A stretch of DNA of 21,476 nt from a virus. Taxonomy: Duplodnaviria > Heunggongvirae > Uroviricota > Caudoviricetes. Positions 8,516 to 19,909 of the stretch are shown here, one piece after another. The DNA is taken from IMG/VR virus record IMGVR_UViG_2526164632_000013. One strand, written 5' to 3'. The first letter of the stretch is position 1. Every line of letters starts with the position of its first letter. The position numbers and the translations under genes are program-made. A model generated the notes under the pieces. The model was not told the DNA's origin. It ran no database searches and saw nothing but the letters and a program-made list of their open reading frames with translations.

Positions 8516-8963
8516 GAATCCTCCCGGCCGGGATAATATTGTGAGTAAAATGAGGAGCGGGCTGAAGTCCGGAAGTTACAGGACAATGGCAGAAGAGAGA
8601 CAACAGCCCGCAATACGAAAAAGGCCGCGCTATTGCGCAGAGTGATTACTGTCGGATATTATTCGCCAGCTGAAATATTACTTCACGTTTTGTTGTTTAT
8701 TCCTTGCCGCCCGCGTCTCCCAGCGCGGGCTTTTTTTGTCCATAAGAAAGCCCCTCCGGAGAGGGGCTGGAGAGTGGCGCTATGTGCCATTGCATGGTGC
8801 CGGGTGCCTCCCGGTGAATTCAGTACCAGCACCTGAATCCGCGATTATCCCATATACCTACTCGCTGATTGCCCCTCCGCACAGGGGGATTCACCATGCC
8901 AGTTTCTTTTAACAAACTCCCCGCAAAACAGACAACTGTCAACCGTCTGAATTGTGAGACATT

Positions 8964-9003: not shown

Positions 9004-9080
9004 TGGCGCGTTGTACTGGATTCGAACCAGTGACCGATTGCTTAGAAGGCAATTGCTCTGTCCGGCTGAGCTAACAACGC
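9004..9080 (-). tRNA. argO: tRNA-Arg (anticodon UCU)
   Basis: Manual fold: acceptor GCGTTGT/ACAACGC, anticodon stem ATTGC/GCAAT, loop CTTCTAA (anticodon TCT), T-arm GGTTCGAATCC, discriminator G, CCA encoded. Symbol assigned by position, following the ileZ-argN-argO order of Stx-phage late regions. Confidence 0.85.
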
Positions 9081-9093
9081 ATGATGCAGATAA

Positions 9094-9170
9094 TGGACCG
9101 CCATCGGGGACTTGAACCCCGCGCAGCCAGCTTCGAAGGCTGGCGCTCTTTCCTGATGAGCTAATAGCGG
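9094..9170 (-). tRNA. argN: tRNA-Arg (anticodon UCG by manual fold)
   Basis: Acceptor CCGCTAT/ATGGCGG (one G-U pair), anticodon stem CCAGC/GCTGG with loop CTTCGAA (anticodon TCG), T-arm GGGGTTCAAGTCCCC, CCA encoded. Symbol by position only. Confidence 0.75.
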
Positions 9171-9177
9171 TATGTGA

Positions 9178-9253
9178 TGGTGGCCCTTGCTGGATTTGAA
9201 CCAGCGACCTGGCGATTATGAGTCGCTCGCTCTCACCACTGAGCTAAAGGGCC
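9178..9253 (-). tRNA. ileZ: tRNA-Ile2 (anticodon CAU, AUA-reading ileX/ileZ-like)
   Basis: GGCCCTTTAGCTCAGTGGTGAGAGCGAGCGACTCATAATCGCCAGGTCGCTGGTTCAAATCCAGCAAGGGCCACCA is near-identical to E. coli ileX as recalled; anticodon loop CTCATAA. Confidence 0.85.
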
Positions 9254-13255: not shown

Positions 13256-13507
13256 TTATTCTTCTGAAAAAGCAGAAAAGCCAGCTTTTATTCCGATCTC
13301 TTTCAGTGCCTGTAATGAAGTGACAAACTCACCTTCGCGCAAGATAAATCCGTCTGTCACTCGACCATCCACAAAATTAATTAACGCAGCCCCATTCTTT
13401 CGCAAACACACAATGCGGTAATGACTAACAATATTTCCATTTTCAACGCACACAGCATAGAGGCCATCTTCACAAAAAATTTTACGCAGTTCTTCGATGT
13501 TCATCAT
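13256..13507 (-). CDS. Hypothetical protein, Rem-like by size and position
   Basis: 83 aa, directly downstream of hok as rem is downstream of hokD in K-12 Qin; GGAAGGA Shine-Dalgarno. Family not confirmed by sequence. Confidence 0.55.
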   Translation of the reverse strand: MMNIEELRKIFCEDGLYAVCVENGNIVSHYRIVCLRKNGAALINFVDGRVTDGFILREGEFVTSLQALKEIGIKAGFSAFSEE

Positions 13508-13723: not shown

Positions 13724-13879
13724 TTACTCCTCAGGTTCGTAAGCTGTGAAGACAGCGACCTCCGTCTGGCCGGTTCGGATTCGTACCTCGCAGAGGTCTT
13801 TCCTCGTTACCAGTGCCGTCACTATGACGGTTAAACAGATGACGATCAGGGCGATTAACATCGCCTTTTGCTGCTTCAT
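13724..13879 (-). CDS. hok: Hok/Gef-family type I toxin (HokD/RelF-like)
   Basis: 51 aa MKQQKAMLIALIVICLTVIVTALVTRKDLCEVRIRTGQTEVAVFTAYEPEE, the Hok family signature; AAGGAG Shine-Dalgarno. An in-frame upstream ATG (13936) with its own Shine-Dalgarno gives a 70-codon mok-like frame. Confidence 0.85.
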   Translation of the reverse strand: MKQQKAMLIALIVICLTVIVTALVTRKDLCEVRIRTGQTEVAVFTAYEPEE

Positions 13880-14090
13880 AGCCTGCTTCTCCTTGCCTTT
13901 CGGCGCGTAAGAGGCTAACCTACGTTTGTGAAGCATAGATTGGGCCTCAGATTAATGTTAAGCGTCTTGCAGGACGCGTAATGTTAACTGGGGCTTTTCT
14001 CTGTCTGCCTTACGGTGGCATGCCCGAGGCAGACAGCCTCAAGCACCCGCAGCAATTCTACTTAACTCCCGTCACCTCGCCAATATAAAA

Positions 14091-14250: not shown

Positions 14251-15282
14251 CTACCAATCAATAAAATCAGTGATGTTATCCAACCTAATTACAGTAACTT
14301 CCCGTCTCAACTGGTTTTTCCAATATATCTCACGAGCGTTTTGTTCACCAGCACCGCTCCACTCAATTACTCTTAAAGGCTTAGAGGTTAGGTAAGGTCG
14401 AATAAGCAGGTTAAGGTGAATATCGAGACCAGAGTAACCAAACAATATTATTTCTTCTGATTCAAATAATGCAAACTGCAAATAATCCCAGTACGTAGAA
14501 AGAACATTAGATGCTGCTATAACTGACGGTTTTCTTTTTATATGAGTTAACACTATATGCTCACTAGGTTCATCTATGTCAAGAGTAAGTTGTGAGCGTG
14601 AAAGTTTTAAAACATTTTCATGCTGATTAATAAATAGTGGTGAACCATGCAAGTGCAAATAATAACCAAACCTACGATTGTATTTCCGTTCGAGCGCTGC
14701 AGAGGAAAATCCGTGGCTTAGCATCCCATCAACTAAAACCCCATCATACCCGTTGAATATATCATTATCTATGAATGAATTGTATAATAATTTGTCATAG
14801 TTTAATGTCGCGATATGTGAGTGTGTGTTCTTTACAAACTCCACAAGCGCATTTTCGAATCTTTGTGGCAAACCTTTATCGTAATTATGCAACCTGGTTG
14901 CAACTTTGTGAATATAAGTGGCGGTAATTTTGGGGAAGTTTAGTCCATCTTCAGTAAGCCAATGCACGTTCCCCTCTCCAATTTGAGCAAGAGCTTTACA
15001 ATATGTGACAGCCTGGTGAAGGGTATCCAACTCATGTTCTCCTTCTGGTGGACCTTGCCGCTGAAGACAACGCTCGATAAGTTGCTTGTGGATATCTTTT
15101 AAAAAATTGGGGCGATGCCAAATTTCTTCCAACGCTCTGTCTAAGGAGAAGTGAGCAGGATCTAAAGCCATACCGAGACCGTTGCCGAATATTATTAATT
15201 TTCTTGCCATATAGGGGGACTCATATTGGAATAACGCTGGATAGCGTCGCGCGATACGCTTAAGTTTAGGATTAATAGACAT
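14251..15282 (-). CDS. Standalone SIR2-like (SIR2_2-type) protein, candidate NADase defence effector
   Basis: 343 aa with the ordered motif set of defence-type SIR2 domains as recalled from ThsA: IIFGNGLGMA (Gly-rich NAD loop), IATLNYDKLL (TNYD-type, putative catalytic Asn161), YYLHLHGS (putative catalytic His212), ILFGYSGLD. No other domain. The gene and its 370-bp upstream region are visibly AT-rich compared with flanking phage genes (not computed). Confidence 0.8.
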   Translation of the reverse strand: MSINPKLKRIARRYPALFQYESPYMARKLIIFGNGLGMALDPAHFSLDRALEEIWHRPNFLKDIHKQLIERCLQRQGPPEGEHELDTLHQAVTYCKALAQIGEGNVHWLTEDGLNFPKITATYIHKVATRLHNYDKGLPQRFENALVEFVKNTHSHIATLNYDKLLYNSFIDNDIFNGYDGVLVDGMLSHGFSSAALERKYNRRFGYYLHLHGSPLFINQHENVLKLSRSQLTLDIDEPSEHIVLTHIKRKPSVIAASNVLSTYWDYLQFALFESEEIILFGYSGLDIHLNLLIRPYLTSKPLRVIEWSGAGEQNAREIYWKNQLRREVTVIRLDNITDFIDW

Positions 15283-17857: not shown

Positions 17858-18265
17858 ATGGATACAAGAACCCTAGGCCAGCGAGTTCTGGCACGACGAA
17901 AAGAATTACGCCTAACACAACGAGAAGCTGCACGCCTCGCTGGGGTAGCTCACGTCACAATTTCACAATGGGAAAGAGACGAAACCCAACCGGTCGGGAA
18001 GCGGTTATTTGCTTTAGCTGATGCGCTGAAGTGCTCGCCTACATGGCTAATGTTTGGTGACGAAGACAAGGCACCAGTGCCAGCACAAGAACTTCATGTG
18101 GAAACCGAGTTAACTCCCAGCCACAAAGAATTGATCGAATTATTCGATGCTCTTCCCTCCTCCGAGCAGGAAGCCTTACTGTCTGAAATGCGCGCAAGAG
18201 TAGAGAATTTCAATAAACTCTTCGAAGAAATGCTTAAAGCACGTAAAAACAAATCAATAAAATAA
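17858..18265 (+). CDS. dicA: XRE-family HTH repressor (DicA-like)
   Basis: 135 aa; HTH LRLTQREAARLAGVAHVTISQWERDETQP; C-terminal ...SPTWLMFGDEDK...MRARVENFNKLFEEMLKAR resembles DicA as recalled; 135 aa is the size recalled for DicA. Confidence 0.8.
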   Translation: MDTRTLGQRVLARRKELRLTQREAARLAGVAHVTISQWERDETQPVGKRLFALADALKCSPTWLMFGDEDKAPVPAQELHVETELTPSHKELIELFDALPSSEQEALLSEMRARVENFNKLFEEMLKARKNKSIK

Positions 18266-18296
18266 CACTCCTTTCAGATACTTAGATTCCCTCACT

Positions 18297-18355
18297 CTTT
18301 TTGTTAGACCAATCTAACAAAAATACTTGCTACATTTGTTAGGTTATTCTAAATT
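18297..18355 (+). promoter_or_regulatory. Promoter/operator of the dicB operon
   Basis: Perfect palindrome TTGTTAGA-ccaa-TCTAACAA (18301-18320) and a further TTTGTTAG (about 18335-18342) overlapping a sigma70-like promoter TTGCTA-N17-TAAATT (18327-18355), just upstream of the ydfA-like gene. Confidence 0.55.
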
Positions 18356-18432
18356 AATCTCCACCAAGACACCGCACGGTGTTCTCAGCAAACAGTTCCG
18401 CTACCCCGGCGTTAAGGGGAAATGAGGTCAGC

Positions 18433-18588
18433 ATGAATACTATCGATCTTGGCAACAACGAATCTCTGGTATGCGGCGTGTTTCCCAACCAGGACGGCAC
18501 GTTTACCGCGATGACGTATACCAGAAGCAAAACGTTTAAAACCGAAAATGGTGCCCGTCGCTGGCTGGAAAGAAACTCAGGTGAGTGA
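18433..18588 (+). CDS. ydfA: YdfA-like small protein (first gene of dicB operon)
   Basis: 51 aa from the ATG at 18433 (TGAGGT Shine-Dalgarno); size and position match ydfA of K-12 Qin as recalled; sequence MNTIDLGNNESLVCGVFPNQDGTFTAMTYTRSKTFKTENGARRWLERNSGE. Confidence 0.65.
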   Translation: MNTIDLGNNESLVCGVFPNQDGTFTAMTYTRSKTFKTENGARRWLERNSGE

Positions 18589-18589
18589 T

Positions 18590-18718
18590 ATGGATTTCGA
18601 CACAATCATGGAAAAGGCTTACGAAGAATACTTCGAAGGCCTTGCCGAAGGCGAAGAAGCTCTCAGCTTCAGTGAGTTTAAACAGGCGCTTTCCAGCTCG
18701 GCAAAATCTAACGGCTGA
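18590..18718 (+). CDS. ydfB: YdfB-like small acidic protein
   Basis: 42 aa MDFDTIMEKAYEEYFEGLAEGEEALSFSEFKQALSSSAKSNG; ATG 1 nt after the ydfA-like stop (TGATATG); not in the ORF track (under 60 aa); 42 aa is the size recalled for YdfB. Confidence 0.6.
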   Translation: MDFDTIMEKAYEEYFEGLAEGEEALSFSEFKQALSSSAKSNG

Positions 18719-18747
18719 TAAGCGAAGCAGCACCGCGAGGAATCAGT

Positions 18748-18966
18748 ATGCAGAAACGAGAACCCGTCATCATCTCGCCAGACTATACCGATGATGAACT
18801 TTATGAGTGGATGCGCCAGAAAATTAATGCAGCGCAGGATCTGAAATGGGCCAATGAAGCCAGGGCTAAGCAGGCTGAAAATCTGTCCGCTCTGGAGCAG
18901 GATATCACCAGGCTGGAAAAAGCAGCGGCATTAAGCATTGCCAGAATGATTACATACCCGCGTTAA
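18748..18966 (+). CDS. ydfC: YdfC-like protein
   Basis: 72 aa; GAGG Shine-Dalgarno; size and order match ydfC as recalled. Confidence 0.6.
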   Translation: MQKREPVIISPDYTDDELYEWMRQKINAAQDLKWANEARAKQAENLSALEQDITRLEKAAALSIARMITYPR

Positions 18967-19306
18967 TAGCTAACCAACGAAGCTAAGGTTGGTAATTAAG
19001 GAGTTCTCCACGGGTGAGGTGGAGTGCGTGCGCCGGACATGGGTGAGCATCCGGCACTGACAGTTTACTGAAAGGATATTTCCATGAAAAGTCAGACCAT
19101 AACGCGAAAGCGCACGGCGAGGTAGCTGGTTCATAGATAGCCTGTCGTTAAATTTTCGTCGACCGTGCGCTTCCGGTTGTGGCACTCCGCGAAATGGCGC
19201 GGCGGTAAGTATGGCGGGGTTATTCCTTCCCCGTTGAGGACACCGGGTTGTCAGGTTGACCATACGCTTAAGCGACAACCCCGCTGCAACGCCCTCTGTT
19301 ATCAAT

Positions 19307-19364
19307 TTTCTGGTGACGTTTGGCGGTATCAGTTTTACTCCGTGACTGCTCTGCCGCCGTTTTT
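19307..19364 (+). ncRNA. dicF: DicF small regulatory RNA (ftsZ-targeting)
   Basis: TTTCTGGTGACGTTTGGCGGTATCAGTTTTACTCCGTGACTGCTCTGCCGCC followed by GTTTTT matches the 53-nt DicF sequence as recalled; lies in a 570-bp non-coding gap between the ydfC-like and dicB-like genes, as in Qin. Confidence 0.8.
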
Positions 19365-19532
19365 AAAGTGAATTTTGTGATGCGGTGAATGCGGCTGAGC
19401 GCACGCGGAACAGTTAAAACCAAAACAGTGTTATGGGTGGATTCTCTGTATCCGGCGTTAATTGTTAACTGGTTAACGTCACCTGGAGGCACCAGGCACC
19501 ACATCACAAAATTCATTGTTGAGGACGCGATA

Positions 19533-19721
19533 ATGGAAACGTTATTACCAAACGTTAATACGTCTGAAGGTTGTTTTGAAATTGGTGTCACTATCAGTAA
19601 CCCTGTATTTACTGAAGATGCCATTAACAAGAGAAAACACGAACGGGAGCTATTAAATAAAATATGCATTCTTTCAATGCTGGCCCGTTTACGTCCGATA
19701 CAAAAAGGATGCTGGCAATGA
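19533..19721 (+). CDS. dicB: DicB-like cell-division inhibitor
   Basis: 62 aa METLLPNVNTSEGCFEIGVTISNPVFTEDAINKRKHERELLNKICILSMLARLRPIQKGCWQ; GAGGA Shine-Dalgarno; immediately downstream of DicF; 62 aa is the size recalled for DicB. Confidence 0.75.
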   Translation: METLLPNVNTSEGCFEIGVTISNPVFTEDAINKRKHERELLNKICILSMLARLRPIQKGCWQ

Positions 19722-19909
19722 ATACAGCATTTGCACTTGTTCTGACAGTTTTTCTTGTTTCCGGAGAGCCAGTTGATATTGCAGTCAGTGTTCACAGGAC
19801 AATGCAGGAGTGTGTGACTGCAGCAACCGAACAGAAAATTCCCGGTAACTGTTACCCGGTCGATAAAGTTATTCACCAGGATAATAACGAAATCCCGGCA
19901 GGTCTTTAA
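19718..19909 (+). CDS. ydfD: YdfD-like small membrane/lysis protein
   Basis: 63 aa MNTAFALVLTVFLVSGEPV... with an N-terminal hydrophobic segment; ATGA overlap with the dicB-like stop; 63 aa is the size recalled for YdfD. Confidence 0.7.
   Translation: MNTAFALVLTVFLVSGEPVDIAVSVHRTMQECVTAATEQKIPGNCYPVDKVIHQDNNEIPAGL

Follow-up and report, generated by a model that had tools for sequence, protein, structure and literature searches.

What does the long gap in front of the cell-division inhibitor gene dicB hold? The question is raised by a stretch of viral DNA of 21,476 nucleotides (Caudoviricetes; IMG/VR record IMGVR_UViG_2526164632_000013), hereafter the window. Reading its letters without database searches, an earlier note, which we call the original prediction, placed the small RNA (sRNA) DicF at 19307-19364, inside a non-coding gap of the dicB operon, and took it to be part of a processed polycistronic transcript. 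DicF is among the earliest bacterial regulatory RNAs described. Our own analysis covers identity, structure, context, conservation and covariation, while the cleavages, the targets and the control by DicA are taken from the literature on Escherichia coli K-12.

DicF between ydfC and dicB

The segment is almost certainly a genuine dicF gene lying between cistrons of the dicB (dicBF) operon in a Qin-like lambdoid prophage. The locus consists of the following features, and the borders of the gap are those originally proposed.

18748-18966, plus strand: ydfC, the last coding sequence (CDS) 5' of the gap, from the list of open reading frames (ORFs); ydfC in L002 (99.9% identical) and in K-12.
18967-19532, plus strand: the gap, 566 bp, from the ydfC stop (18966) to the dicB ATG (19533).
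19307-19359, plus strand: the DicF sRNA, 53 nt, reaching 19364 with the U5 tract of its intrinsic terminator (RF00039 match, alignment to b1574, fold).
19533-19721, plus strand: dicB, 62 aa, matching Pfam PF05358 (DicB) over the full length with 127.4 bits; dicB in L002 and in K-12.

Run over the whole window, the Rfam model of DicF (RF00039) matches 19308-19359 on the plus strand with model positions 1-52 of 52, at 72.5 bits (E = 1.6e-14), well over its gathering score of 48. All consensus pairs are formed in the window copy and none of them is non-canonical. DicF is alone above an Rfam threshold on the plus strand of the gap; the other matches of a sensitive scan, tsr32 (E 0.36) and mascRNA (E 7.1), are regarded as chance.

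Compared with the K-12 gene (b1574, 53 nt), 52/53 nucleotides of 19307-19359 are identical. The sole change is at the 3'-terminal nucleotide 53, from C to G. For K-12 DicF, compensatory mutants have proven the pairing of its 3' region to ftsZ and pykA, and of its 5' region to xylR (PMC5069750); since nucleotides 1-52 are the same, these pairing regions are untouched in the window. A covariance-model search and a comparison with K-12 were among the checks proposed with the original prediction, and both speak for it.

The predicted fold, a 7-bp GGCGGUA/UGCCGCC stem stacked on a 5-bp inner stem, agrees with the Rfam consensus. Directly 3' of it comes a U5 tract (TTTTT, 19360-19364), and a stem of 7 + 5 bp followed by U5 has the form of a Rho-independent terminator: the GC stem and T-run first seen by eye are real. 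The G53 allele (...GCCGCCG-UUUUU) is the second commonest, with 18 of the 93 sampled cassettes that share the same downstream flanking sequence. It is present in several species-level lineages, for instance at an E. ruysiae locus (L017).

The context is equally familiar. In an annotated locus that is 99.9% identical, NZ_CP066032 (the twin locus), the gene order is dicC, dicA, ydfA, ydfB, ydfC, gap, dicB, ydfD, exonuclease and integrase, with the labels dicC-like cro, dicA-like repressor and ydfD-like gene. The twin prophage is a Qin-like lambdoid element integrated beside yccA, as opposed to the Qin site of K-12. K-12 and the window are 96.7% identical over 991 bp of this region, and 98% in the gap. 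Apart from nucleotide 53, a few substitutions in the flanks and the prophage site, the copy thus equals K-12 DicF in fold, terminator, position between ydfC and dicB and flanking processing structures. Of 5426 complete E. coli genomes, 4753 have the same region, and those that have it carry a median of two copies, which fits the known expansion of dicF in enterohaemorrhagic E. coli (PMC7873438).

A canonical DicF in a canonical operon is correct and already known: the finding confirms a textbook element, in what is essentially the K-12 allele. The PGAP (RefSeq) annotation of the twin locus lists no non-coding RNA here, and the locus needs correct annotation more than follow-up.

Transcription and processing

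Three features on the plus strand are needed to follow the transcript.

18328-18356, plus strand: putative dicB promoter read from the sequence, with -35 TTGCTA (18328-33), a 17-nt spacer and -10 TAAATT (18351-56).
19097-19182, plus strand: irregular helix of ~22 bp in the predicted fold, 19097-19119 paired with 19160-19182.
19286-19306, plus strand: linker rich in pyrimidines and in A/U, for the most part single-stranded, which leads up to the RNase E-type site AUCAAU/UUUCUGG (19306/07).

According to those parts of the K-12 literature that treat processing, DicF is excised from the polycistronic dicBp transcript (Faubladier 1990, via 10.1101/2023.04.14.536235; PMC9438474). RNase III is described there as cutting between +813 and +814, giving the 5' end of a 190-nt species, and RNase E as making the 5' end of the 53-nt DicF, whose 3' end is the intrinsic terminator (10.1101/2023.04.14.536235). 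An alternative DicF of 72 nt results from RNase III processing of the full-length RNA (PMC9438474).

The putative promoter is flanked by TTAG...CTAA operator-like repeats, and the transcription start of the dicB operon would lie near 18363. We placed the RNase III site in the window by counting from this start: 18363 + 813 gives 19176, and 190 nt from there lead to 19365, the end of the U-run. The reported cut (~19175/19176), and with it the 5' end of the 190-nt precursor, falls in the 3' strand of the ~22-bp helix. The 5' end of K-12 dicF aligns to 19307, i.e. to the predicted RNase E-type cut position at 19306/07. Further, the predicted 3' end of the 72-nt form, ~19378, is in the middle of a ~23-bp helix that closes the leader of dicB. 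The folds place a suitable helix at each of the two reported RNase III sites and leave an AU-rich stretch single-stranded where RNase E is expected to cut, and the proposal of a processed polycistronic transcript agrees with the published K-12 work. Two transcriptome-wide RNase III maps (PMC6212723, PMC5371410) cite DicF and hold no site data for the locus.

A separate promoter for dicF was considered and rejected. A scan of 18200-19800 for sigma-70-like sites gave none on the plus strand and one on the minus strand, fewer than in shuffled sequences, so that no plus-strand site is present in the gap. A homologue of the antirepressor gene rem is annotated in the same prophage (~13256-13507, minus strand), and Rem has been reported to derepress dicBp. 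In the literature, too, dicF has no internal promoter, and the operon is normally repressed by DicA (10.1101/2023.04.14.536235).

A conserved structured RNA 5' of DicF

What lies between the ~22-bp helix and the linker? In phage genomes, BLAST finds the ~120 nt just 5' of DicF again in unrelated settings, with 77-89% identity. They contain a structured unit that we call module A.

19183-19285, plus strand: module A, ~100 nt with three hairpins, the 5' body of the 190-nt DicF precursor (alignment, covariation).
19187-91/19198-202, plus strand: hairpin H0 (fold and alignment).
19215-19/19229-33, plus strand: hairpin H1 (fold and alignment).
19245-52/19274-81, plus strand: hairpin H2 (fold and alignment).
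19209-14/19260-65, plus strand: possible pseudoknot GUAUGG/CCAUAC, with CCAUAC in the H2 loop.

Copies of module A were gathered by its invariant loop sequence and kept if the rest of the module was present, giving 67 distinct sequences. In these homologues the three hairpins and the pseudoknot have 94.8% of their cells paired, and at 9 pairs both partners change. The observed pairing and covariation are matched by none of 500 shuffles, and when the partners are slid along the alignment only 37-54% are paired. The covariation is mostly in H1 and H2; H2, for example, is GGGUUGUC/GACAACCC in most copies and GGGUAACC/GGUUACCC in L119.

The pseudoknot is 99% paired and shows a series from U-A over U-G to C-G, a statistic biased by the search pattern, which partly fixes the H2 loop. 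Two homologues found by BLAST, independently of the pattern, have the same 20-nt H2 loop and add no covariation. For these two reasons we rate the pseudoknot as plausible, not proven. An extension of it (UAA with UUA) is unsupported, as a loop column varies between T and C without a change in the partner.

Module A has no match in Rfam at E <= 10, and its covariance model finds no second copy in the window. Two other settings are the position immediately 3' of cI in cdtI and the Stx2c phages, and the ban operon leader of P1 and P7, ~40 nt past a C1-controlled promoter. In each of them an intrinsic terminator follows at most ~60 nt 3' of the module, and this terminator differs each time. Salmonella phage F1055 and phage pPE4 also have the module. 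Module A is more conserved than the sRNA 3' of it, and more widespread than DicF. An 18-nt loop pattern was scanned against genome contigs. Most of its 113 hits, about the chance number for 596 Gb, were discarded as chance, coming from unrelated phyla and with the rest of the module missing; those judged real are from Escherichia, Shigella, Trabulsiella and Serratia symbiotica only.

The clearest relative is the "dicF-like region" of P1 (NC_005856, 68791-68892, ban operon leader), to which the record assigns no function. It is the same module A (covariance model, 89.7 bits in P1 and 92.7 in P7), followed by an intrinsic terminator and, farther 3', by an element resembling the sRNA STnc100, before tciA. 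P1 differs in that there is no DicF seed or hairpin, the terminator is unrelated, and tRNA genes stand between the modules.

The best-supported role of module A is that of the structured body of the 190-nt precursor. This precursor is a stable species that builds up when RNase E is inactive. Module A may act as a scaffold for stabilisation or for processing.

Could it instead be a cis-acting regulatory RNA, i.e. an attenuator, a sensor or an antiterminator like put of phage HK022, that chooses between termination at DicF and read-through into dicB? We consider this unlikely, although several observations point that way. The genes 3' of the terminator require expression across it, the module is better conserved than the sRNA that follows, and a terminator is always within ~60 nt, be it at Qin dicF, after cI in cdtI and Stx2c phages or in the ban leader of P1 and P7. 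Homologues that were not selected by the 20-nt H2 loop nevertheless have it unchanged. Further, module A repeats, at 19201-07, the GGCGGUA that forms the 5' strand of the terminator stem, and in the minimum-energy fold of the 190-nt RNA this copy pairs with the terminator 3' strand.

This last pairing was examined as an antiterminator and rejected: it is in the minimum-energy fold, but has no covariation support and is absent in P1. Variation in the terminator 3' strand does not follow module A, and nothing in the terminator of P1 (GCCCAUCUUCGGGUGGGC) is complementary to GGCGGUA. Loci of the Rac type keep the layout of sRNA, leader and kilR without any module A. In addition, longer read-through species were undetected in K-12 (10.1101/2023.04.14.536235).

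The comparison with HK022 leads to the same view. The putL and putR sites are structured RNAs in the early transcript, 5' of terminators that are to be read through (PMC9378689), and the placement of module A in P1 and cdtI is similar. However, there is no similarity in sequence or structure: put has ~70 nt and two stem-loops (PMC9378689), module A ~100 nt, three hairpins and a possible pseudoknot, and in the window it is ~820 nt from the promoter. Membership in the put family was rejected, as the covariance model built from the 67 sequences has no hit in the HK022 genome, putL and putR included, even at E <= 10.

A variable cassette in a constant frame

Module A and the start of the dicB leader are constant, and the cassette of 60-90 nt that they flank varies from locus to locus. 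Canonical DicF is the commonest. In L008, L047, L140 and L153 the 5' end of DicF is kept and the hairpin is short or different, and in L212, L231, L232, L238, L239 and L121 the 5' and loop sequences are wholly different. L159 is also among the loci with a swapped cassette and both flanks constant. Some variants keep the GGCGG/CCGCC stem base and have other 5' and loop sequences on it. The variant cassettes may be DicF-like sRNAs with other targets. A limited search of the literature found no description of them, and we do not claim them as new.

In phage vB_Apl-pPE4 (L250, 690-870) a variant cassette is duplicated in tandem between module A and the leader of kil. This phage is labelled as an Actinobacillus phage; the region, with dicA and kil, is ~85% identical to E. 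coli prophage sequence. In two phages of the Rac type (L242, 1445-1499; L244, 1445-1500) a DicF-like hairpin with 41.1 and 39.1 bits, below the RF00039 threshold of 48, stands directly 5' of an STnc100-like leader and kilR, and module A is absent. The gap itself can also be enlarged. In PPompW and some O157:H7 prophages an insertion of ~630 bp with two ORFs is located just past the ydfC stop (~18985 of the window; L247, 1020-1660). The ORFs are of 135 aa (plus strand), without a significant Pfam match, and 77 aa (minus strand), and the rest of the gap is intact.

The leader of dicB

The last third of the gap, 3' of the DicF stem, forms a second structured RNA.

19360-19531, plus strand: STnc100-like structured leader of dicB, a multi-helix junction (RF02076 below threshold, fold, consensus fold).
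19519-19525, plus strand: Shine-Dalgarno region of dicB, UUGAGGA; in read-through RNA its predicted partner is UUUUUAA of the terminator U-tract (19360-19366).

The Rfam model of STnc100 (RF02076) aligns to the leader over its full length with 35.2 bits (E = 6e-6), short of the gathering score of 47, as are related leaders with 28-44 bits. A closing helix of ~23 bp pairs 19360-19382 with 19508-19531, and the fold has z = -5.1. In a consensus fold of ten diverse copies, including true STnc100, 15 of 33 pairs show compensatory changes on both sides, i.e. a core junction structure is common to STnc100 and the dicB leader and is kept by compensatory changes. Compared with STnc100 and the related PasD sRNAs (10.64898/2026.05.13.724894), the leader shares the UCACCnGGAGGCACCnGGCACC hairpin, the GGUGAAU...GCG hairpin and the closing helix.

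What the leader lacks is the 3' terminator hairpin of STnc100: the true STnc100 copy ends in GCCCCUCUCCGGAGGGGC and a U-run, whereas here model positions ~170-206 align to the start of dicB. As it has no terminator of its own and runs into the Shine-Dalgarno sequence and ATG of dicB, it would serve as the leader of an mRNA and as a substrate of RNase III, and not as a free-standing sRNA.

Homologous leaders are found ~20 nt 5' of kilR in Rac-SA53, POCJ13 and 666R9, and 5' of tciA/terB in P1, P7 and D6; kilR is also among the genes behind such a leader in Stx phages. The genes dicB, kilR and tciA/terB are all known or annotated cell-division inhibitors. At the place equivalent to the Shine-Dalgarno pairing, the kilR leaders of the Rac type have a UUUUU/AAAAA pairing. 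The closing helix may gate the translation of dicB until RNase III cuts it, and the same cut would give the 72-nt DicF.

A model of the locus and its weak points

Taken together, these elements would work as follows. Transcription would start at the DicA-repressed promoter 5' of ydfA and run through ydfABC into the gap, where the intrinsic terminator of DicF (19321-19364) would stop most transcripts. RNase III would cut in the ~22-bp helix at ~19175/76 and leave the 190-nt precursor with the folded module A as its 5' body, and RNase E would then cut in the AU-rich linker at 19306/07 to give the 53-nt Hfq-dependent sRNA. Its 3' region is expected to pair with the ribosome-binding sites of ftsZ and pykA, and its 5' region with xylR, blocking FtsZ synthesis and cell division. 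Transcripts that read through would enter the STnc100-like leader, whose closing helix would pair the terminator U-tract with the Shine-Dalgarno sequence of dicB. Cutting of this helix by RNase III would yield the 72-nt DicF and presumably free the dicB mRNA for translation.

The biogenesis has the same logic as that of SroC, CpxQ and SdhX, which come from a parent mRNA with an intrinsic terminator and 5' trimming by RNase E (PMC9438474). DicF differs by adding RNase III on both sides, and by preceding a toxic gene with its leader in the RNase III substrate.

A wider claim would make the gap one case of a modular phage platform that produces an sRNA and a toxin together, from module A, a swappable seed-terminator cassette and an RNase III-gated leader, with module A as a new class of cis-regulatory RNA. 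It would take module A as common to lambdoid prophages and the P1/P7 ban leader, DicF as the usual cassette beside at least five other variants, and the leader as preceding the division inhibitors dicB, kilR and tciA, and it would let module A set the balance of termination and read-through or direct processing. As a joint claim this is doubtful. The flanking conserved RNAs are a modest lead, and the only part of the locus possibly worth further work. In the 190-nt precursor, the 5' body has a structure that is conserved and covaries, and module A, the homology of the leader and the coincidence of RNase III ends with two long helices together suggest a testable model in which sRNA output is coupled to tight control of a toxic division inhibitor.

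Some points weigh against the assignment of a genuine, processed DicF. The putative transcription start is deduced from the hexamers, and all processing steps are carried over from K-12, the strain itself being known here from its sequence. The C53G change, at the last base before the U-tract, may have an effect, though it is outside the stem. One C-A mismatch is present in the window's closing helix and not in the Rac-type copies. A terminator scan passed over DicF, as its loop is longer than the 8-nt limit of the scan. Finally, the duplexes that RNAduplex predicts between DicF and ftsZ (-60 to +30) are long and non-specific, with 43 of 500 shuffles equally good; since duplex energy does not discriminate, the target pairing rests on the identity to the tested K-12 RNA.

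Is the copy then a silent relic, in a defective and DicA-repressed prophage, with C53G or changes in the flanks spoiling function or termination? An IS66-family element does interrupt the terminase gene in the twin locus, the operon is normally under DicA repression (10.1101/2023.04.14.536235), and the closing-helix mismatch is specific to the window allele. Still, a relic is very improbable. The sRNA body is the same as that of the functional K-12 RNA, stem and U-tract are intact, and the promoter, the operators, dicA, dicC and rem are all there. The G allele is the second commonest and spread over several lineages, and the Qin prophage of K-12 is also defective but produces DicF.

Coding potential and hairpins of the gap

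The gap as a whole folds better than shuffled sequence (z = -4.8; none of 100 shuffles equally good). It contains two ORFs, of 68 aa (19165-19371, plus strand) and 111 aa (18970-19305, minus strand), neither of which has a Pfam match. Among 77 distinct homologous regions the former is open in 2, with a usual stop at codon 36, and the latter in 20. The remaining part of the gap is

18967-19096, plus strand: 5' part of the gap, with small hairpins and no conserved ORF.

That the gap codes for at least one small protein (the 68-aa or 111-aa frame, or short ORFs behind the strong Shine-Dalgarno-like AAGGAG at 18998-19003), with the RNA features secondary, is scarcely credible: the ORFs do exist, and several phage records have automated "hypothetical protein" features over the region, but the two frames are broken in most homologues, the ORFs behind AAGGAG have other lengths and start codons in K-12 than in the window, substitutions across the modules track base-pairing rather than codon periodicity, and RefSeq annotates a CDS here neither in K-12 nor in the twin locus. 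Coding potential is thus rejected and the gap is non-coding, as had been suggested from the poor look of the two frames.

The original prediction had also noted further hairpins. The one it gave as an example, GCCGGA/UCCGGC, is real: it is found at 19032-19055 and is part of the minimum-energy fold. K-12 has TCCGGA at this site and loses one pair, so by itself this hairpin is weak evidence. Another, CUCCAC/GUGGAG, is at 19005-19026. The rest of the gap is more than a set of such hairpins and consists of defined and conserved RNA modules.

Other elements in the prophage and in related phages

Outside the gap, three further RNA features were located in the window, all on the minus strand.

8738-8928, minus strand: a true STnc100 sRNA (RF02076, 139.2 bits; Rfam), just 3' of three tRNA genes and 5' of a DUF6645 gene, in the late region.
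9007-9253, minus strand: three phage tRNA genes (Arg, Arg and Ile according to the twin locus), 3' of a DNA methyltransferase gene.
13874-14048, minus strand: sok antitoxin RNA (RF01794, 116.2 bits), adjoining the toxin gene hokD (~13724-13879) as a type I toxin-antitoxin pair.

The position of tRNA genes 3' of a DNA methyltransferase gene is as in late regions of the Stx type. That STnc100 comes after tRNA genes in the window parallels P1 and P7, whose STnc100-like element also follows tRNA genes. In P7 (L005, 2304-2388) and D6 (L245, 1304-1388) a tRNA-Sec-like match scoring 46.6 and 43.1 bits, just short of its gathering score (47), is placed between the tRNA genes and this element; the D6 record has it as tRNA-Ser with a UGA anticodon.

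The rem homologue is near the sok/hokD pair. Between hokD and the replication genes, the annotation of the twin locus has a gene for a SIR2-family protein (~14251-15210, minus strand), which is possibly a defence gene. According to the same annotation, an IS66-family element, ISEc22 (~418-2752), interrupts the gene of the terminase large subunit, and the prophage is therefore probably defective.

In phage cdtI (L004, 40-228, minus strand), a C4 antisense RNA (68.4 bits) stands beside isrK (60 bits). This pair is near the immunity region, ~2.3 kb from the cdtI copy of module A.

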